Notes under the pieces: model-generated | Told to the model about the DNA's origin: nothing | The model's input: only the letters and a program-made list of their open reading frames with translations | Databases searched by the model: none | Position numbers and translations under genes: made by a program | Part shown: piece after piece, positions 2,481-58,913 of the stretch | How the letters are laid out: the number at the start of each line of letters is the position of its first letter | Numbering within the stretch: the stretch's first letter is position 1 | Source of the DNA: an uncultured Bdellovibrionales bacterium | GTDB lineage: Bacteria > Patescibacteriota > Minisyncoccia > Moranbacterales > UBA1568 | NCBI GenBank assembly: GCA_964612055.1 | Contig: CAZTBI010000001.1 | Span: 420,824-484,823, forward strand | DNA: 64,000 bases | Reading direction: 5' to 3'

Positions 2481-3383
2481 TTACTTCTTCTTGGCGCCGG
2501 TCGCGACAAAAGACGCGCCGATCTTCCAGCGGCCGCGTTCACGAAAAGCAGGAATAGTCTGCTTGCGAGCCGCATTGATGAGACCACTTAGGACAAGCTG
2601 GTGCTTCTTGGCATACTCTGACAACGTCACGATCTCCTCTCCTTTCAGGTAGGTGATACGCTTATGGAGAGACTCCATAAGAGCGAAGGCCACAATTTTT
2701 TCCATACGCTGCACCTGTTTGGTCGCATCGTACTCGCGAAAAGACTGATAATAGATACCTTTTTCCTTATCACGGATGATAACCACTGGGAAACCAAGTC
2801 GGAAAAGCTGGTAGTTCATGAGCGCCCGACCGATCCGACCATTGCCGTCACAGAACGGGTGAACACGCTCGAACTCGAGATGGAAACGGGCGATGACGTC
2901 AGTCACATAGCTCTCGTGATCACTTCCGTACTGTTCGATAGCGCGCTCCATCAAGGAAGCGACTTGCTCCGGTGCCGGTGCGATATGCTGCCCGACCCGG
3001 ACGAACTCACCCGGTGCTCGAAAACGTCCGGCAATCTTGTCATCGATATTACCGATCAACATCCTATGAAGAAGCAATACAAATTCTTCGGAGAGATCCG
3101 TGTTTCGCGCCTTAACCTTGATGTACTCCATCACTCGAGCCAGATTCTTGGCTTCGAAAACTTCTCGCAACTCAACCGTGCGCGATACCTCCATCTCAAA
3201 CAGGATCTTCTCCGTTTCTTTCAGCGTCAGAGTGGAGTTCTCAATGGCATTCGAGTTATAGACCCCTTCTGGAATTTCTACCTCATCGAGCACGTTCAAA
3301 AGCGCCTCTTTCCCCTTCTTGAGAGAGTCGAACTCCTTCTTGAGAGCCCTGATACGCTTTTTGTACACCGCGTTCAATGCCAT
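2481..3383 (-). CDS. fic: Fic family protein (Fido domain, AMPylation-type)
   Basis: Canonical Fic motif HPFCDGNGRIGR (HPFx[D/E]GNGRxxR) is present in the 300-aa ORF. Confidence 0.9.
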   Translation of the reverse strand: MALNAVYKKRIRALKKEFDSLKKGKEALLNVLDEVEIPEGVYNSNAIENSTLTLKETEKILFEMEVSRTVELREVFEAKNLARVMEYIKVKARNTDLSEEFVLLLHRMLIGNIDDKIAGRFRAPGEFVRVGQHIAPAPEQVASLMERAIEQYGSDHESYVTDVIARFHLEFERVHPFCDGNGRIGRALMNYQLFRLGFPVVIIRDKEKGIYYQSFREYDATKQVQRMEKIVAFALMESLHKRITYLKGEEIVTLSEYAKKHQLVLSGLINAARKQTIPAFRERGRWKIGASFVATGAKKK

Positions 3384-3806: not shown

Positions 3807-4244
3807 TTATAATGAGAGATGCTTGGTTGGCTTGAGAACAGCAGTCGGATCAGTCTTCCATTCATCTGAAACATCAGCATAAAGCTCGAGCTCGTTACCA
3901 TCGGGATCGAGGACATAGAGACTGTGCGTCACATGATGATCAGCGGAACCAACGATGGTGACATCTTTTGCTTTCAATTCTTCGTACACGGCACGGAGCA
4001 CTTCCGGACCATCCCCTATCTTGAACCCAATATGGTACAAGCCTGGCTCTGGCATGTGTCGTTCTTTTGGCACACCGCCGATTTCGAGAAGAAGCATCTC
4101 ATGATGTGTCCGGCCAGAAGAAAAGATAGCCATGCCGGGAGCACGTTTGATCTCATGAAACCCGAGCGTATCACGATAGAAATTGGCCATCTTTTCAATA
4201 CTGGTGACGTAGAGAACGATATGTCCGAGTTCTTTGATTTCCAT
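3807..4244 (-). CDS. VOC family protein (glyoxalase/bleomycin-resistance/dioxygenase fold)
   Basis: Start reads MEIKELGHIVLYVTSIEKMANFYRDTLGF, typical of the glyoxalase/VOC N-terminus. The ORF is 145 aa. Confidence 0.75.
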   Translation of the reverse strand: MEIKELGHIVLYVTSIEKMANFYRDTLGFHEIKRAPGMAIFSSGRTHHEMLLLEIGGVPKERHMPEPGLYHIGFKIGDGPEVLRAVYEELKAKDVTIVGSADHHVTHSLYVLDPDGNELELYADVSDEWKTDPTAVLKPTKHLSL

Positions 4245-4256
4245 ATCTCTTTTGAT

Positions 4257-4856
4257 TTAGAATTTTCGACTATCGTAAGCCCAGTGCAAAAGCGCCTGAC
4301 GCTGACGTGGTCGACAACTGAGATCGCCTCGTCGACAATGGTGCGCTATCTGAGCGATGTGACGACTGATTACTTTCCAACGTTTGATCTGTCGCTCGTC
4401 CTCTCCTTTCAGGCGTCGTCCCATGTAGTAACGACAGTACCATTGAAACCAGCCACGCGGATCATCTGGAGAGATCCACTCTTTTTCCCGCCAGACAGCA
4501 AGTGATTGCGAAGCCCTGACATGAAAAAAATTTAAACTGGCATCGTAGTGTTCCGGTGAGAGCTTCGCATAAACAAACCAAGCTTTCGGAAATTCATCAC
4601 GACAATCAGTCATGTATTTCCCACCAAAGACTCCGAGTGCCAACATCTCTTGTGGCGTCAGATCCGGCTTGAATTCTGAATGGAAATTTTTTCCGACTGG
4701 CTCGGTACACGTATACACGTAGCCTGATTGCATTTTATCATGTACTACGATTTTCGACTGCATAGCAGAAATTCTTTCAAGAAATGGGAACGGGTCTGAA
4801 GCGACATGCGCGACAGACCCGATCATACAAACAATGCCACGACCATCAATCAGCAT
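4257..4856 (-). CDS. Hypothetical protein (199 aa)
   Basis: ORF with protein-like composition. It overlaps the upstream ORF by 11 nt, which suggests translational coupling. Confidence 0.5.
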   Translation of the reverse strand: MLIDGRGIVCMIGSVAHVASDPFPFLERISAMQSKIVVHDKMQSGYVYTCTEPVGKNFHSEFKPDLTPQEMLALGVFGGKYMTDCRDEFPKAWFVYAKLSPEHYDASLNFFHVRASQSLAVWREKEWISPDDPRGWFQWYCRYYMGRRLKGEDERQIKRWKVISRHIAQIAHHCRRGDLSCRPRQRQALLHWAYDSRKF

Positions 4857-23681: not shown

Positions 23682-25370
23682 CTAATGATTCTGAGTAACT
23701 TCTTTCATCAGAAGCTCTTTCTTCTCTTTCGCTTGAGTAAAGTTCGGGTTGAGTTCAAGCGATTTATCAAGAGCTTCTAAAGCGTTCGCAGAATCATTTT
23801 GTTTTATATACACATTCGCCAGATTGTAATACAGAGAGAAGAGTGTAGGACTCAGTTCGATAGCCAGTTGGTACTCACGTTCTGCGGCAGTGAAATCCCC
23901 AGAAGACACATAGAGTGAACCAAGGTTATTATGAGTCTTGTAATTCGTGGGATCTAACTCTAGTACTTTTTGGTAGTTTTTTATGGCATTCGCAGTATCG
24001 CTTACTTCAGCGTATGACAGGGCTAAGTTGTAATAGAGATCCACTTCGTTTGGCGAAAGAGCGATAGATGCGTTATAGAGTGAGATGTTGTCTTTGAAAT
24101 CTTTGTTTCGATTGGTATCTATCTTCCAGGCAATACCAAGATAAAGAATGACGACTACGAACAGAACTACTTTCACGGAGAGGCGACCGAAAAATGCTTT
24201 ATATCGTTCCGTCAGGTGTTCCACACCATAAATCAGCGCAAGAATAAGGCCAGCGAGCGGTATAAAAATATATCGTTCATAGAGTACATTATTTCCCAGG
24301 CTACCAATAAAGATGATCGGTGGCGCAATAAGAAAAAGCCACCAGAGCAAGCCAACAAAAGGAGCAGCTTGTTTTTTACGAAAGAACACGAAGAGCATGA
24401 TAAAAAACATCAGAAGCACCAGTCCTGAGAGAATAATCTGAAAGGCTGGCAACTGATTGACATCAATAGAATGGAACAAGTTAAGCGGAAGCGGGAAAAG
24501 GAGCTTAAAGAGGTAAGCCCCGAAAAGCCACAAAGAAGTAAGGGTGTGAGTTGAAGCTGATAGATCTTCAGTAGTTCTGGCATAATCATTCGCAAAAAAT
24601 GTTCCGAGAACAGCATACCGAAAAGAGAAGTACACAAAAATTGGTACGGTGTAAAAAAGGACGAGTCGGTAATTCTTCACCAGAGACATAAAGACTACTT
24701 TCGGAAATCTTTTTTGGAAGAGTTCACAGCCAATAAAGATTGCTCCGAAAAAAACAGCTGTCTCCTTGGAAAACATCGCGAGCAACCAAAACAGTCCTGC
24801 TTTTATCAAAGCATTCTCTTTTTCTTCTTCGGAGTACCGGATATACCATTTGAGAGAAAGCAAAAGAAAGATCGCTACGAGTATATCCTGCACGGCTGCG
24901 ATCCAGTTAATGACTTCGGTATTAATTGGATGCGTCAGAAAAAAGAGTACTCCCAAAAAAGCGAGGATCCTGTTTTTAAGGAAGAATGTATAAAAACGAA
25001 GGAGAATCAAACAAAGGATGGAGATATAGGCAAGATTCAAGAAGTGAAAGATCCATGGTGAGGAAGATATCCGATATGCCACGAAATCCGAGAGAAGCTT
25101 CATCGGCCGGTAGTAGAAACCCTTTCCTTCACAACCGCCAAGCTGATACTCCCCCATACAGCCCGTAAATGTCTTGTACCAGTACTGTCCGCTGTGCACG
25201 TATTCATTCGTTACGATGGCCGCCCGGTCATCATGAACAAAACCATTCGCAAGAGTGCTTCCGAAGAATACTAAAAGCACTACCATCAGTATGATCTGCT
25301 GATTGAGTTCTACAGAGAAGAACTTTTCTAGTTTAGAGAAAAATGTCTTGAGATTTTCCATTCCTTTCAA
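23682..25370 (-). CDS. Multi-pass membrane protein with C-terminal TPR repeats (TMTC/PMT-like, DUF1736-type glycosyltransferase family 39-like)
   Basis: About 11 TM helices, then TPR repeats in the C-terminus (YYNLALSYAEVSDTANAIKNYQKVLELDPTN...). Architecture typical of TMTC-like proteins. Confidence 0.7.
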   Translation of the reverse strand: MKGMENLKTFFSKLEKFFSVELNQQIILMVVLLVFFGSTLANGFVHDDRAAIVTNEYVHSGQYWYKTFTGCMGEYQLGGCEGKGFYYRPMKLLSDFVAYRISSSPWIFHFLNLAYISILCLILLRFYTFFLKNRILAFLGVLFFLTHPINTEVINWIAAVQDILVAIFLLLSLKWYIRYSEEEKENALIKAGLFWLLAMFSKETAVFFGAIFIGCELFQKRFPKVVFMSLVKNYRLVLFYTVPIFVYFSFRYAVLGTFFANDYARTTEDLSASTHTLTSLWLFGAYLFKLLFPLPLNLFHSIDVNQLPAFQIILSGLVLLMFFIMLFVFFRKKQAAPFVGLLWWLFLIAPPIIFIGSLGNNVLYERYIFIPLAGLILALIYGVEHLTERYKAFFGRLSVKVVLFVVVILYLGIAWKIDTNRNKDFKDNISLYNASIALSPNEVDLYYNLALSYAEVSDTANAIKNYQKVLELDPTNYKTHNNLGSLYVSSGDFTAAEREYQLAIELSPTLFSLYYNLANVYIKQNDSANALEALDKSLELNPNFTQAKEKKELLMKEVTQNH

Positions 25371-25503
25371 AAACAGTGAACTTTAACTTACTTACAGCCA
25401 GAATAGCAGTTTCAGGAAATTTCATGAAATCCTGAACTTTTTCTTGTTCAGGTCCATTCACAACTCAAACAAAAAAGCATCTTTGATGGATACTTTTTTC
25501 TTA

Positions 25504-25520
25504 GCGGGGACGACCGGACT
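25504..25520 (-). repeat. Orphan direct copy of the 3' end of tRNA-Asp (GCGGGGACGACCGGACT), identical to 25601-25617
   Basis: 17/17 nt identity with the tRNA-Asp 3' terminus, located 80 nt downstream. Confidence 0.9.
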
Positions 25521-25600
25521 TACCCCTTCGGGGCATAAACTTCTCATCCGGACATTCCAGAAAACCAAAACCCGACCACAAGGGCCGGGTTCTTGATTTT
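25521..25600 (-). repeat. Conserved 80-nt tRNA-downstream element. Minus-strand order is terminator hairpin plus T-run, a variable segment, then GAGAAGTTTATGCCCCGAAGGGGTA. It is homologous to 26401-26478.
   Basis: Aligns with the element downstream of tRNA-Ala. Shared blocks include AACCCGGC..GGGTTTTG and GAGAAGTTTATGCCCCGRAGGGGTA. Confidence 0.8.
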
Positions 25601-25675
25601 GCGGGGACGACCGGACTCGAACCGGCGACCTACTGCGTGACAGGCAGTCGCTCTAACCAGCTGAGCTACGCCCCC
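25600..25675 (-). tRNA. tRNA-Asp (anticodon GTC)
   Basis: Revcomp folds as a cloverleaf GGGGGCG-TA-GCTC..GAGC-...CTGTCAC...-CCGGTTCGAGTCCGG-CGTCCCC-G, with anticodon loop CUGUCAC. CCA is not fully encoded. Confidence 0.9.
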
Positions 25676-25688
25676 ATTTTTTCTTTTG

Positions 25689-25762
25689 TAGCAGGGGCGA
25701 GACTCGAACTCGCGACCTCAGCGTTATGAGTGCTGCGTTCTAGCCAGCTGAACTACCCTGCC
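25689..25762 (-). tRNA. tRNA-Met (anticodon CAT), elongator-like
   Basis: Revcomp is GGCAGGGTAGTTCAGCTGGCTAGAACGCAGCACTCATAACGCTGAGGTCGCGAGTTCGAGTCTCGCCCCTGCTA, with anticodon loop CTCATAA. Confidence 0.85.
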
Positions 25763-25787
25763 ATATTTTCCGATTTGTTCTGCTTGT

Positions 25788-25859
25788 TGCGGGGGGTGGA
25801 TTCGAACCACCGACCTCTTGGTTATGAGCCAAGCGAGCTGCCAGACTGCTCTACCCCGC
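25788..25859 (-). tRNA. tRNA with CAT anticodon (Met or Ile2/lysidine type)
   Basis: Revcomp is GCGGGGTAGAGCAGTCTGGCAGCTCGCTTGGCTCATAACCAAGAGGTCGGTGGTTCGAATCCACCCCCCGCA, with anticodon stem CTTGG/CCAAG and loop CTCATAA. Confidence 0.85.
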
Positions 25860-26088
25860 TATAATTCTTCAATCGCTCTCTCCCTTGTCCAGATTTCCAA
25901 AATTTTTCTCTTTCTCTGGCATGAAGACTATCAGAACACTCCTCAAGTTTCAACACCTGCACTATCTTTTTTCCTTTTGTGGAAAATGTTTTTCCCTTCC
26001 TATGTTCATAGACTCTCTGTCGCAAGTCATGCGTCATACCGACATAGTATCGGCCGTTTTCAAATCGCAATGCATACACCGTATACAT
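25822..26088 (-). CDS. GIY-YIG nuclease family protein (YhbQ-like, 88 aa)
   Basis: MYTVYALRFENGRYYVGMTHDLRQRVYEHRKG matches the GIY...YIG...R..E pattern of the YhbQ/UPF0213 family (compare E. coli YhbQ [30 protein letters not shown]). Confidence 0.8.
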   Translation of the reverse strand: MYTVYALRFENGRYYVGMTHDLRQRVYEHRKGKTFSTKGKKIVQVLKLEECSDSLHAREREKFWKSGQGRERLKNYSGVEQSGSSLGS

Positions 26089-26094
26089 ATACTT

Positions 26095-26176
26095 TCTTGG
26101 TTATGAGCCAAGCGAGCCCTCCTACGGCGGGTAAACTGCCAGCTTGTCCGCCTGCGGCGGAACTGCTCTACCCCGC
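26095..26176 (-). other. Partial copy of the 5' portion of the CAT-anticodon tRNA (positions 1 to about 44, through the anticodon arm). Two roughly 20-nt insertions in the D-loop region include a conserved hairpin TCCGCCGCAGGCGGAC. It lies immediately upstream of the GIY-YIG gene.
   Basis: Revcomp is GCGGGGTAGAGCAGT[TCCGCCGCAGGCGGACAAGC]TGGCAG[TTTACCCGCCGTAGGAGGG]CTCGCTTGGCTCATAACCAAGA. Outside the brackets it is identical to the tRNA at 25788-25859. Confidence 0.8.
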
Positions 26177-26217
26177 TGTATGATGATTGTATCCCTTTTC
26201 TCTTGACACGCCAACTG

Positions 26218-26291
26218 TGGGTGATCCAAGATTCGAACTTGGGACCTCGACATTATCAGTGTCGCGCTCTAACCAACTGAGCTAATCACCC
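26218..26291 (-). tRNA. tRNA-Ile (anticodon GAT)
   Basis: Revcomp is GGGTGATTAGCTCAGTTGGTTAGAGCGCGACACTGATAATGTCGAGGTCCCAAGTTCGAATCTTGGATCACCCA, with anticodon loop CTGATAA. Confidence 0.9.
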
Positions 26292-26348
26292 GAATTTCTG
26301 ATAGCCAAAGAAAAAGCTTCGAAAAGACCTATTTTTCGAGCCTCGGCA

Positions 26349-26376
26349 GTATAGCTGAACTAAGAAAAAATTTCAA
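26349..26376 (-). promoter_or_regulatory. Sigma-70-like promoter for tRNA-Ile (minus strand: TTGAAA, 16-nt spacer, TATACT)
   Basis: -35 TTGAAA (revcomp of 26371-26376) and -10 TATACT (revcomp of 26349-26354), about 55 nt upstream of the tRNA-Ile 5' end. Confidence 0.5.
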
Positions 26377-26384
26377 GTCGGATG

Positions 26385-26400
26385 TGGACCGTACAGGACT
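26385..26400 (-). repeat. Orphan direct copy (third copy) of the tRNA-Ala 3' end (GTGGACCGTACAGGAC)
   Basis: 16-nt identity with 26661-26676 (tRNA-Ala 3' end) and 26481-26495. Confidence 0.9.
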
Positions 26401-26478
26401 TACCCCTCCGGGGCATAAACTTCTCGCCCAGTCGATCCAAAAATCAAAACCCCGCAACCAGTGCCGGGTTTTAACTTT
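26401..26478 (-). repeat. Conserved ~80-nt tRNA-downstream element (second copy; homolog of 25521-25600)
   Basis: Shared blocks TTACCCCTYCGGGGCATAAACTTCTC and CAAAACCC...GCCGGGTT with the Asp-locus element. Confidence 0.8.
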
Positions 26479-26495
26479 GGTGGACCGTACAGGAC
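26479..26495 (-). repeat. Orphan copy (second copy) of the tRNA-Ala 3' end, here carrying a full templated CCA (revcomp GTCCTGTACGGTCCACCA)
   Basis: The sequence ggtggaccgtacaggac includes CCA, whereas the resident tRNA-Ala gene encodes only ..CCACA. Confidence 0.85.
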
Positions 26496-26610
26496 GCGAA
26501 TACTCGACCTCCGGCCTGCGTTCTATGAGGCTTCCGCCCTCTAGCCCCGCAAGCGGGTCACCCCAAACGGGAAACTCCCGTTTCCCGACCCCTTCCCGTT
26601 CAAGCCCTGT
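26496..26610 (-). ncRNA. Structured G-rich segment (about 115 nt) ending in a tRNA-Ala-like 3' terminus. Candidate small RNA or element remnant with several hairpins, including AAACGGGAGUUUCCCGUUU and a GGAA-tetraloop stem.
   Basis: Multiple perfect hairpins. It is bounded upstream by the tRNA-Ala terminator and downstream by a CCA-bearing tRNA 3'-end copy. No family assigned. Confidence 0.3.
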
Positions 26611-26656
26611 ACAATAAAATATAAAATGCCCGTATCATACGACACGGGCATTTTAT
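26611..26656. terminator. Rho-independent terminator after tRNA-Ala (ATGCCCGT-loop-ACGGGCAT with flanking T/A runs; bidirectional)
   Basis: 8-bp perfect stem with T-runs on both strands. Confidence 0.7.
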
Positions 26657-26659
26657 AAT

Positions 26660-26734
26660 CTGTGGACCGTACAGGACTCGAACCTGCCACCCCCGCATTG
26701 CAAATGCGGTGCTCTACCAGATGAGCTAACGGCC
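26660..26734 (-). tRNA. tRNA-Ala (anticodon TGC)
   Basis: Revcomp is GGGCCGTTAGCTCATCTGGTAGAGCACCGCATTTGCAATGCGGGGGTGGCAGGTTCGAGTCCTGTACGGTCCA, with anticodon loop TTTGCAA. Confidence 0.9.
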
Positions 26735-26741
26735 CAATTTA

Positions 26742-26984
26742 CTACTTCGTTATTGTATCAAGAAGCTTTCTCCCTTGTCCTGACTTGAGAAACCTCTCTC
26801 TTTTCATAGCTTCCGTCTTTTCTTCGTACTGCTCAGTATAGAGTAGCACAAAGGGCTTATTTTGTTTTGTATATGTGTTCGATCCGGTATTATGTTCCCT
26901 TAGTCTAACAGCGGCATCTTTCCCGCTGTAGCCCACATAACGCTTACCATTTTTTTCACTTTTTAGTACATACACTGTGAACAT
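26742..26984 (-). CDS. GIY-YIG nuclease family protein (YhbQ-like, 80 aa)
   Basis: MFTVYVLKSEKNGKRYVGYSGKDAAVRLREHNTG carries GIY-YIG motifs. It ends 8 nt before the tRNA-Ala 5' end. Confidence 0.8.
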   Translation of the reverse strand: MFTVYVLKSEKNGKRYVGYSGKDAAVRLREHNTGSNTYTKQNKPFVLLYTEQYEEKTEAMKRERFLKSGQGRKLLDTITK

Positions 26985-26997
26985 AGTATATACGTTT

Positions 26998-27047
26998 TGA
27001 TGATGAGCTCCAGCCGGAGGCTGGTCCGCCTCTGGCGGAAACGGCCC
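26998..27047 (-). other. Partial copy of the tRNA-Ala 5' end (positions 1-16) split by a 30-nt insert containing the conserved hairpin TCCGCCAGAGGCGGAC, immediately upstream of the GIY-YIG gene
   Basis: Revcomp is GGGCCGTT[TCCGCCAGAGGCGGACCAGCCTCCGGCTGG]AGCTCATC. Outside the brackets it matches GGGCCGTTAGCTCATC of tRNA-Ala. Confidence 0.8.
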
Positions 27048-27112
27048 AAAATTGTTTCTTTCAAATGTGATAATTCTAGCCGAAAAAAGAAATTTTGTCT
27101 ACTATATGAGAT

Positions 27113-28216
27113 ATGTCAGAAAACAATCATAAATACGCTCACGCCTTTCTTGCCATTCCGAATATCGGAAGTGGCACATTACGAACCTTGGCGGCTCACT
27201 TCGGAAGCATGGAGAAAGCCTGGTTTGCTTCTCCAGAAGAGATCGCTGGCGTTCCAAAGATGCGCCCAGAAAAGAAAGAAGCGCTCATCATTGGACGGAA
27301 GAGCATCAACCCAGAGGAAACGTGGGAGAAATTTCTCACACAAGAAATCAAGCTCTTCCTTCCAGAAGATCCAGAATTTCCAGACCTCCTTCGAGAAATT
27401 CCCGATCCCCCCTACACGCTCTATATAGAAGGGAATTTTGATTGGGCGAAGCAGACGCCCATGGTCGCTATCGTTGGTTCGCGAAAATTTACCGCCTATG
27501 GAGAGCAGGTAGCGGCACGCCTAAGCGAAGATCTGACCCGTGCCGGAATAGTGGTCGTTTCAGGACTGGCTTTTGGAATTGATTCCGTTGCCCATGAGGC
27601 AGCGCTCGAAGCAAACGGCGAGACCATCGCCGTTCTCGGAAGCGGTATCCAAAGCATCTCTCCATCCAGTCACATCCCACTCGCCAAGAAAATTATGGGA
27701 CACGGCGCGGTGATCAGTGAGTATCCGCCGACTCTGGGAGGAGGGAAATGGACCTTTGCAGAACGCAATCGCATCATCGCTGGGATGACCCTTGGGACCA
27801 TCGTCATCGAAGCTGCCGAGAAAAGCGGTAGCCTCATCACAGCTCAGTGTGCCCTCGAATACAACCGCGAGGTTTTTGCTGTCCCTGGATCAGTCTTTTC
27901 TCCCTACTCCATCGGTACCAACAACTTGATCAAGCGAGGCGCTAAAGTCGTCACTGGGTTACAGGATATCTTAGAAGAACTCAGCCAAGAAAACCTTTTC
28001 TCCAGTCAAGAAAAAGGCCAGAAGAAAAAAGAGGTTACCGGCCTTTCACCTGAAGAACAAAAGGTTCTCTCTTTGCTTTCTCACGAACCACTTCACATTG
28101 ACAAGATCATCAAAGCGACTACACTGCAAACAGCCGCCGCCAGTTCTCTCTTGGCATTACTCGAAATCAAAGGCCTTGCCAAGAATGTCGGTGGCATGCA
28201 CTATGTAAGAACGTAG
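27113..28216 (+). CDS. dprA: DNA-processing protein A (DprA/Smf)
   Basis: DprA Rossmann-like domain motifs (IVGSRKFTAYGEQ..., GLAFGIDSVAHEAAL) and a C-terminal winged-helix-like tail. Confidence 0.9.
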   Translation: MSENNHKYAHAFLAIPNIGSGTLRTLAAHFGSMEKAWFASPEEIAGVPKMRPEKKEALIIGRKSINPEETWEKFLTQEIKLFLPEDPEFPDLLREIPDPPYTLYIEGNFDWAKQTPMVAIVGSRKFTAYGEQVAARLSEDLTRAGIVVVSGLAFGIDSVAHEAALEANGETIAVLGSGIQSISPSSHIPLAKKIMGHGAVISEYPPTLGGGKWTFAERNRIIAGMTLGTIVIEAAEKSGSLITAQCALEYNREVFAVPGSVFSPYSIGTNNLIKRGAKVVTGLQDILEELSQENLFSSQEKGQKKKEVTGLSPEEQKVLSLLSHEPLHIDKIIKATTLQTAAASSLLALLEIKGLAKNVGGMHYVRT

Positions 28217-58727: not shown

Positions 58728-58829
58728 GCCCGAATTCAGAAAGAACTCAAGGGCTCAAGATATATCCATACCTAAAAATGATTTACACGAAAGAATCCTC
58801 TCTTTACACAAGAGAAAGCGTTTACGTTG

Positions 58830-58913
<84 letters not shown>

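Follow-up and report, generated by a model that had tools for sequence, protein, structure and literature searches.

The repeats that stand behind the tRNA-Tyr genes of Escherichia coli, known as RtT, have been on record since the late 1970s, and the Rfam family that describes them (RF00391) is known only from enterobacterial tRNA-Tyr. We know of no explanation for the fact that the RtT repeat carries the tRNA's own 3' end. Bosl and Kersten are said to have found in 1991 that the E. coli rtT RNA is trimmed like the 3' end of a tRNA. In this work we analyzed a 64,000-nt stretch of contig CAZTBI010000001.1 from an uncultured bacterium (the window), in which two short elements of a similar design, referred to here as mini units, lie behind a tRNA-Asp and a tRNA-Ala gene. 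A mini unit is about 55-110 nt long and is built from the 3' end of the tRNA beginning at A58 of the T loop (R), a spacer (S), an arm of 5-13 nt that is complementary to R (M), and a conserved 25-nt sequence made of GAG and a 22-nt core (I), after which a copy of R follows. No open reading frame (ORF), cargo or recombinase is present inside the mini units. We read them as miniature, non-autonomous, RtT-like repeat units linked to tRNA genes, an explanation that we put forward with about even confidence. Literature searches returned neither a description of the mini element nor a mechanism for RtT.

In the tyrT-tyrV locus of E. coli (L079; loci are given as L numbers throughout), the RtT unit reads R (ATCCTTCCCCCACCACCA), spacer, GGGGAAGGAU, GAGAAGCUU...CCCGAAGGG...GAGUA and R again. 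The segment GGGGAAGGAU complements AUCCUUCCCC and is followed by GAGAAGCUUCG...CCCGAAGGG...GAGUA and then by AUCCUUCCCCCACCACCA, which is the 3' end of tRNA-Tyr from the T loop onwards. The units are repeated 3-4 times in this locus as 178-bp repeats annotated rttR/tpr, and they score 133-137 bits with RF00391, for which the gathering threshold is 45 bits. The number of RtT copies per E. coli genome ranges from 1 to 10 (4,738 genomes). In Salmonella, RtT is listed as a 175-bp variable-number tandem repeat (PMC2658671). A preprint (10.1101/2024.07.17.603846) describes increased coverage of exonuclease-resistant DNA at tyrT-rttR. According to PMC3318445, rttR is encoded by one repeat unit and the E. 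coli rtT RNA is its processed product.

Both mini units of the window lie on the minus strand. The tRNA-Asp(GTC) gene (25601-25675; ARAGORN, and 70.1 bits with the Rfam tRNA model) ends in AGTCCGGTCGTCCCCGC (25601-25617, R1). An exact second copy of these 17 nt, R2, occupies 25504-25520 (repeat family D11) and runs from A58 of tRNA-Asp through the base past the discriminator. Between them stand the spacer (25561-25600), which holds a terminator-like hairpin (25567-25593) and a T-run, the arm M (25546-25559, ending in GGAATGTCCGGAT), which complements the start of R2 by minimum free energy (MFE) fold, pairing register and covariation over 60 loci, and the 25-nt core AAGTTTATGCCCCGAAGGGGTA (25521-25545) with its hairpin UGCCCC-GAA-GGGGUA. 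The tRNA-Ala(TGC) gene occupies 26662-26735, and its repeated 3' end is 26661-26678 (repeat family D7). Copies of this end are found at 26479-26496 (16/18 positions) and, as an exact 18-nt copy called R3, at 26383-26400; here too the copied sequence begins at T-loop A58. A terminator-like hairpin (26620-26657, inverted repeat I2) stands right behind the gene, followed by an insert of another type that is described below, and then by the mini unit: a spacer (26440-26478) that is paralogous to the Asp spacer and again holds a terminator-like hairpin, an arm M (26426-26439, ending in TGGATCGACTGGGC) that pairs with R3, and the 25-nt core AAGTTTATGCCCCGGAGGGGTA (26401-26425).

The 25-mer GAGAAGTTTATGCCCCGRAGGGGTA occurs at just these two places in the 64 kb (25521-25545 and 26401-26425), where shuffled sequences give an expectation of 0.00, and the Ala copy differs from the Asp copy (GAGAAGTTTATGCCCCGAAGGGGTA) by a single loop change. 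The likeness of the two units extends beyond the 25-mer, with 81% identity over 62 nt (family D5). The two spacers agree at 37 of 51 positions, which was reached by none of 1000 shuffles. In the MFE fold each copy forms a hairpin in which the 25-mer makes an asymmetric internal loop and a terminal 6-bp hairpin. The window is syntenic with metagenome-assembled genomes (MAGs) of Candidatus Moraniibacteriota, and the Ala and Asp arrangements recur identically in independent assemblies (L080/L084, L086, L090). An earlier note on this stretch had recognized a small conserved non-coding element of about 80 nt bracketed by direct repeats at the two tRNA genes. The exact recurrence of the tRNA-Asp 17-mer, the two further copies of the tRNA-Ala end, the homology of the Asp and Ala stretches and the terminator hairpin with T-run behind each gene all stand as it described them. 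Its three tandem copies at tRNA-Ala hold as three tRNA ends; they are not three copies of one thing, since a different insert of about 110 nt (26497-26605) separates the first two. The arm M, complementary to R, and the resemblance to RtT had both escaped it.

How do these units compare with RtT? Both stand directly behind a tRNA, and both finish with the tRNA 3' end, copied from the T loop onwards (ATCC...), with an upstream arm that pairs with this copy and closes a helix. Both have GGAUGAGAAG after the arm and UA|AUCC at the 3' junction, and both are non-coding and occur as tandem arrays of variable copy number. The sequence GGAUGAGAA, conserved directly 3' of the arm in RtT, is present in the mini units. 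The 13-mer GGATGAGAAG(C/T)TT is identical at 12 of 13 positions between RtT and the mini unit and sits at the matching structural place; 3-5 of 500 shuffles reached this score. The two differ in size, as the mini insert has one 6-bp hairpin in 22 nt whereas that of RtT has several helices in about 95 nt. Unlike RtT, mini units are found at nine tRNA types in Patescibacteria and Clostridia, and the window copies have an intrinsic terminator of their own. We consider the window elements RtT-like in design and possibly homologous to RtT; they are not members of RF00391.

The distribution of the element was determined by an exact-pattern scan with the 22-nt core I, AAGTTTATGCCCCNNAGGGGTA, over one genome per species (185,579 species), so that all loci of this census were chosen by exact I. 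The core was found at 76 genome loci, and 2 more came from a scan of viral contigs. About 70 loci share one architecture: a tRNA, a spacer of about 15-75 nt in which a terminator is often found, an arm M that has GGAT or GGA at its end, three nucleotides (GAG, or TCG in Clostridia), I, and then a sequence beginning AATCC that is the 3' end of the nearest upstream tRNA. The tRNA lies within 260 nt upstream in 55 occurrences, and an exact copy of at least 13 nt of that same tRNA follows I in 49 of the 55. As the earlier note had proposed for the window, the repeats are thus local tRNA 3' ends starting in the T loop, with flanks that match the locus (families D11 and D7 in the window). The copies begin at T-loop position 56-59, or at the equivalent place in long-arm tRNAs, and the distance from the tRNA end to I is 14-75 nt at most loci. 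Nine tRNA specificities are represented (Ser 19, Tyr 12, Lys 6, Asn 4, Ala 3, Asp 3, Arg 3, Pro 3 and Gln 2).

The carriers belong to many lineages of Patescibacteria and to Oscillospiraceae and related Clostridia, which makes at least two phyla. Most of them are MAGs, and one is a closed chromosome (OZ245922.1). A number of MAGs named Bdellovibrionales or Gammaproteobacteria (L006, L012, L021, L057, L065, L071 and similar) have 66-89% identity to Patescibacteria loci, in some over 0.6-2 kb. These labels look wrong on sequence grounds, and on account of this identity such genomes were not counted as extra phyla. In five occurrences (L008, L036, L062, L063, L070) the core is not behind a tRNA and lies between short inverted repeats. 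One of the five is from Thiohalophilus thiocyanatoxydans DSM 16326 (L070 6251-6299), where the 22-mer sits in nested inverted repeats between genes and away from any tRNA. The same intergenic setting was seen in L036, L008, L063 and L062; in the last of these (3111-3157) the 22-mer lies about 140 nt downstream of an RNase P RNA.

The consensus of the conserved 25 nt is GAGAAGUUUAUG-CCCC-GNA-GGGG-UA. From 60 distinct units we derived a covariance model (model R1), a step that the earlier note had recommended for the intervening sequences. In the window this model matches only the two copies, at 25506-25559 (Asp, 68.1 bits) and 26386-26439 (Ala, 60.7 bits). Covariation was measured on an ungapped alignment of the same 60 units, with the ten core-adjacent positions of M set against the first ten paired positions of R. 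Nine of the ten pairs showed compensatory change. Double-sided changes amounted to 130 cells as compared with 58 in shuffles, and 0 of 500 shuffles reached 130. Pairing was 85.6%, as compared with 33-52% when the partners were slid against each other. In loci such as L039, L048 and L065, M is a perfect reverse complement of R over 9-10 nt, with A-U where the real T stem has G.U. At several loci, among them L002, L009 and L014 at tRNA-Tyr, M runs past the T stem and complements the acceptor 3' strand including the discriminator, which indicates that M was not copied from the 5' strands of the tRNA. G.U and A.C oppositions were equally frequent in the M/R helix (40 each), so it shows none of the wobble bias that an RNA helix under selection typically has. 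The pairing looks like Watson-Crick complementarity fixed at the DNA level: a quasi-palindrome may have been corrected from a template, targets may have been chosen in the manner of a guide, or a DNA hairpin may have been under selection.

Four loci with variant hairpins were found through R or the model (L027, with CCC/GGG, L072, L069 and L041). In these the single-stranded GAGAAGTTTAT is kept while the hairpin is altered with compensation. Clostridial copies have GGA(T/G)TCGAAG at the motif position. A conserved G.U closes the I hairpin on the tRNA-sense strand, and positions resembling U54/A58 are retained in the pseudo T loop (UGAGA / UUCGA).

The loci also carry traces of how copies arise and decay. 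The flanking repeats are 17-56-nt copies of the tRNA end. Tandem arrays with units of 55-104 nt are present in L040, L056, L072, L027 and L010. Where R copies differ, the decayed one is the most distal (L056, L077/L078, L042). L077 and L078 are near-identical, and the sole difference is that another terminator cassette stands between R1 and M. In L009 and L014 the duplicated block comprises R and the whole terminator (51-56 nt), and L058 has a truncated terminator in the distal copy. The Asp spacer of the window agrees with the Ala spacer of the same genome at the 37 of 51 positions given above, with the orthologous Asp spacer of L015 at 27/51 and with that of L044 at 36/59 (61%); M and R are locus-specific in the Asp/Ala comparison. 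Taken together, these traces indicate that spacer, M and I act as one unit. Copying or conversion carries it from one tRNA locus to another, it is amplified where it stands, and it brings or regenerates an R and an M that match the local tRNA.

Then, what kind of element would behave in this way? Our explanation of RtT-like, non-autonomous, tRNA-linked repeat units takes in the observed architecture with its tRNA-specific arms, the tandem arrays, the paralogous spacers at different tRNAs, the decayed distal R, the lack of cargo and the likeness to RtT. The unit would sit in the tRNA gene at T-loop position 57/58, as opposed to being inserted behind the tRNA, and its own R would complete the tRNA while the previous 3' end is pushed downstream. 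At this downstream end, M-I-R forms an imperfect inverted repeat resembling an acceptor/T-arm minihelix with a T loop expanded by a hairpin. Multiplication and exchange would take place at the DNA level, probably by recombination between R copies and T-loop boxes, with the necessary functions supplied in trans. RNA produced by read-through would presumably be trimmed at R like the 3' end of a tRNA.

Several observations weigh against this explanation. No enzyme or excised form of the mini unit is known, and no pair of empty and filled sites was found. L009 and L014 can also be read as M and I inserted behind the terminator with a long target duplication. Intrinsic terminators stand between the tRNA and M-I-R in the window, which argues against strong co-transcription there. 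Orthologous Asp units are present in three Moraniibacteriota genomes whose flanking genes share only 66-81% identity, yet neither I nor R2 differs. Selection at the level of the host, or gene conversion, would account for this more readily than recent transposition, although every hit had been picked by an exact I. The Rfam RtT model had no match in window positions 24500-28000 (E<=5) or in 7 related loci (E<=1), and model R1 had no match on the E. coli RtT locus. As the covariance models do not cross over, homology to RtT is argued from the architecture and the 13-nt motif.

A bolder form of the explanation would place RtT and the mini units in one unrecognised superfamily of non-autonomous elements of about 40-180 nt that home to T-loop position 57/58, with M as a guide that base-pairs with the 3' strand of the target tRNA. 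We offer this as speculation, with the chances well on the low side. If it were true, a nucleic acid would direct the choice of target, the 3' end of the gene and a terminator would be rebuilt by the element, and movement between tRNAs and phyla would take place via a conserved host enzyme or one acting in trans. For the mini units as such, the design of RtT is reduced to a 25-nt core at nine kinds of tRNA in Patescibacteria and gut Clostridia, with arms that match the local tRNA, and such a minimal sequence makes the question tractable. Natural arrays and cassette swaps are available for comparison, and a conventional island at the same tRNA provides a contrast. In annotation, mini copies are easily taken for att sites of lost islands or for tRNA fragments.

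The alternative that survives best holds that the unit encodes a structured, RtT-like trailer RNA that is useful to the host. M-I-R would mimic the acceptor and T arm, the enzymes that process tRNA 3' ends would set and stabilise the 3' end of the RNA, and the single-stranded AUGAGAAGUUUAU would serve as a binding surface. The processed rtT RNA of E. coli, as described in PMC3318445, is a precedent for it. The constancy of GAGAAGTTTAT beside compensated hairpin changes in L027, L072 and L069 speaks in its favor, as do the closing G.U on the tRNA-sense strand and the retained U54/A58-like positions. So does retention across genomes, which is orthologous in Moraniibacteriota and indicated by a shared tRNA-Thr/tRNA-Tyr context in Oscillospiraceae. 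These signs of an RNA function are opposed by the equal numbers of G.U and A.C (40 and 40) in M/R and by the intrinsic terminators before M-I-R in the window. Moreover, the function must not depend on which of nine tRNAs precedes, and the arrays and cassette swaps look like DNA dynamics. We consider a trailer RNA of this kind improbable; it and our own explanation are not exclusive.

Slightly less probable still is the view that the 22-nt I is one of a class of small GC hairpin cassettes (AAGTTTA plus hairpin) that insert into the unpaired loops of tRNA-like DNA or RNA and persist only where a tRNA fragment has no function, such fragments having arisen independently by partial tandem duplication. 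Loops other than T loops do hold such sequences: I lies in hairpin loops unrelated to tRNA at the five loci named above, and pseudo-tRNA 5' fragments have I-like hairpins at their D-loop positions in the window (26118-26140), in L015 (tandemly doubled) and in L052. Directly behind tRNA-Met in L044 (2470-2590, minus strand), a near-complete pseudo-tRNA-Met has GC hairpins in place of the anticodon loop and the T loop, and its T-loop insert starts with GAGAA. Pseudo T-arms free of an insert also exist (L002). A cassette landing in any available loop is hard to reconcile with the identical T-loop position in about 70 loci, or with a 64-kb window that holds just two copies, each of them in a tRNA tail. 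What lies upstream of the T-stem strand is not tRNA sequence but only the complement of the acceptor 3' strand, and spacer, M and I travel together between tRNAs. As a separate observation, the fragment in L052 (about 4170-4270) is a pseudo-tRNA-Ser between tRNA-Ser and a mini unit, with the I-like hairpin AAGTTTACCTGCCGTAGGTAGGC at the D-loop position.

The earlier note had suggested that the repeats may be scars of integrase-mediated exchange. In this interpretation M-I-R would be what is left, as attL/attR or after extreme deletion, of conventional elements that carry an integrase and insert in the T loop. The sites of islands and prophages that integrate into tRNA genes do resemble the mini units in having direct repeats of the tRNA 3' end, of which the proximal restores the gene and the distal is a relic, and in stacking behind one gene. 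Repeats from the T loop to the 3' end are the classic sublocation for tRNA-targeting integrases (Williams 2002, as cited in PMC9897764), and the mini unit supplies a new 3' end, sometimes CCA, and a terminator, as integrative elements do. The mini unit differs from att sites in being 55-110 nt long and free of recombinase and cargo, and in having the same sequence next to the repeat whatever the tRNA. The arms of an att site are tied to one integrase and one tRNA, whereas the same 25 nt is found here at nine specificities. In addition, a circle of 55-110 bp would probably be too small for double-strand site-specific recombination.

A conventional island was in fact found in the same tRNA-Asp gene, in a strain variant of the window organism (GCA_020049755.1; L084 4340-13238 and L090 1-1330). 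It encodes a large serine recombinase, a helix-turn-helix protein, an N6/N4 methylase and a ResIII helicase. The left junction reads ...GTCGTCCCCGC|CAATTGG.., and beyond it stand a terminator and then the gene for the recombinase. The right junction (L090) reads ..GTTCGAAGCTACGTACCG|TCGTCCCCGC|AAAATCAAGAACCC.. and continues into the intact spacer-M-I-R2 of the window. The island thus makes a 10-nt repeat, TCGTCCCCGC, in the acceptor strand, its junctions do not contain I, and the window is the island-free state of this tRNA-Asp locus. Since the island uses another junction and leaves the mini unit intact behind it, the conventional att-scar interpretation fails here, and the locus illustrates how successive insertions stack behind a functional tRNA.

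Recombinases were found beside only two I-bearing loci, L038/L037 and L054, by tblastn with three large serine recombinases against all loci and by Pfam on the neighbours at loci that have no upstream tRNA; tyrosine integrases were not searched across all loci. In these stretches (L038 2585-4171, L037 7655-8000, and L054 3459-6456 and 1422-2714) large serine recombinase genes end within about 100-170 nt of M-I-R. The loci look like stacked mobile elements at tRNA tails. The copy in L037 follows a degenerate R, and internal deletion there could yield a mini unit, which speaks for the interpretation as scars or derivatives. The small number of such loci speaks against it, with a tyrosine integrase in one of them. 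Taking both sides together, we regard integrase scars as distinctly unlikely. A serine recombinase was also considered as the partner enzyme of the mini units and rejected, given only two I-bearing loci and island ends devoid of I. L054 also encodes a MobA relaxase, and the tyrosine integrase lies on its other side.

The earlier note had further taken the CCA of the middle tRNA-Ala copy as a sign of a mature-tRNA intermediate or of a foreign donor. That copy differs by one base (ACC vs ACA). None of the six window tRNA genes (those within 25601-26735 plus tRNA-Leu at 58829-58913) encodes CCA. In genomes that do not encode CCA, most carrier tRNAs likewise lack it, with L015, L072 and L004 as exceptions; the encoded CCA mostly follows the genome and not the element. 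CCA follows R1 but not R2 at 9 loci, and the reverse was seen at 1, where it should be kept in mind that the duplicated block often includes the gene trailer. Repeats elsewhere commonly include a non-CCA gene trailer or even the whole terminator. Because CCA tracks the genome, the trailer is part of the repeats and the difference amounts to one base, the CCA argument is weak.

Chance similarity or a collapsed-repeat assembly artefact, the latter raised in the earlier note and lent some color by the mostly metagenome-assembled carriers, has practically no likelihood, as shuffles give an expectation of 0.00, the arrangement is identical in independent assemblies, the same architecture recurs in about 70 loci, one of them on a closed chromosome, and isolates are the source of the E. 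coli analogue.

Two other classes of sequence share some features with the mini units. Like REP (repetitive extragenic palindromic) and MITE (miniature inverted-repeat transposable element) repeats, the mini unit is a short, GC-rich, non-coding hairpin with a single-stranded lead-in and trans dependence, and occasional copies lie in other hairpin loops. Unlike them, it is not dispersed (the 64 kb hold two copies, each in a tRNA tail), has neither terminal inverted repeats nor a short target duplication, and is conserved in sequence across phyla, whereas REPs are species-specific. Minihelix mimics of tRNA, such as the 3' ends of tmRNA and of viral and plasmid RNAs, have in common with it a coaxial acceptor-like and T-arm-like stem, a genuine tRNA 3' strand and a retained UNNGA. 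The mini unit differs from these in that, at several loci, the pairing of its 5' arm extends through the discriminator and that the RNA-type wobble bias is absent, and there is no evidence that mini units are aminoacylated or receive CCA.

Neither I nor the second insert X2 was assigned to a family when the window region and 12 related loci were scanned with Rfam; at the gathering score the scans returned only tRNAs and one RNase P RNA (L062). Hammerhead, hairpin-ribozyme and K-turn motifs were rejected after inspection by eye, since the copies are without core nucleotides, as is the TTCG variant, and Rfam gave no match. Coding readings from the ATG in GGATGAG (compare the E. coli 'tpr' ORF) or from ATGCCCC (MPRRGK...) were also discarded; the first ATG is absent in Clostridial copies and the downstream frames are tRNA sequence. 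An antisense, CRISPR-repeat-like reading was set aside in view of the single copies and the better hairpin on the sense strand, and a resemblance to Xer/dif sites (TTATG..TAAAT) was judged coincidental.

The insert that separates the first two tRNA ends at tRNA-Ala, X2, is GC-rich, about 110 nt long and folded into multiple hairpins. Its unit (26479-26613, minus strand) follows the same plan of arm, insert and tRNA end as the I-type unit with another insert in the middle: the arm GTACAGG (26606-26613), the insert (26497-26605) and the copy of the tRNA-Ala end (26479-26496, ending ..CCACC). The motif layout of X2 is GGGGTCGGGAAA...GGGGTGACCCGC...ACTAGAGGGCGGAAGCC. Homologues stand behind tRNA-Ser in L004 (about 770-925) and behind tRNA-Asp in L015 (about 1895-2040), and a further one is in L006 (3182-3307). 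X2 has no Rfam match, and its similarity to RtT is not significant.

ARAGORN places five minus-strand tRNA genes within 25601-26735, for Asp, Met, Met, Ile and Ala. The two tRNA-Met genes occupy 25688-25762 and 25786-25860, and tRNA-Ile occupies 26217-26291. No repeat was found downstream of tRNA-Leu. Two minus-strand ORFs of 76-80 aa with a GIY-YIG domain (PF01541) lie in this region, one at 26742-26984 just upstream of tRNA-Ala and the other at 25861-26088 just upstream of tRNA-Met. They are preceded by copies of the 5' part of the same tRNA (26990-27050 and 26095-26180), which are interrupted by GC hairpins, and TCCGCCNNNGGCGGA occurs in the 64 kb only at these two sites. This arrangement mirrors that of the 3' elements. 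GIY-YIG proteins were rejected as the partner of the mini units, as among the fetched loci these mini-ORFs occur only in Moraniibacteriota relatives. In relatives the ORFs stand at other tRNAs (Met in L015, Asp in L044) or are absent (L074), and homologues are common in Patescibacteria.

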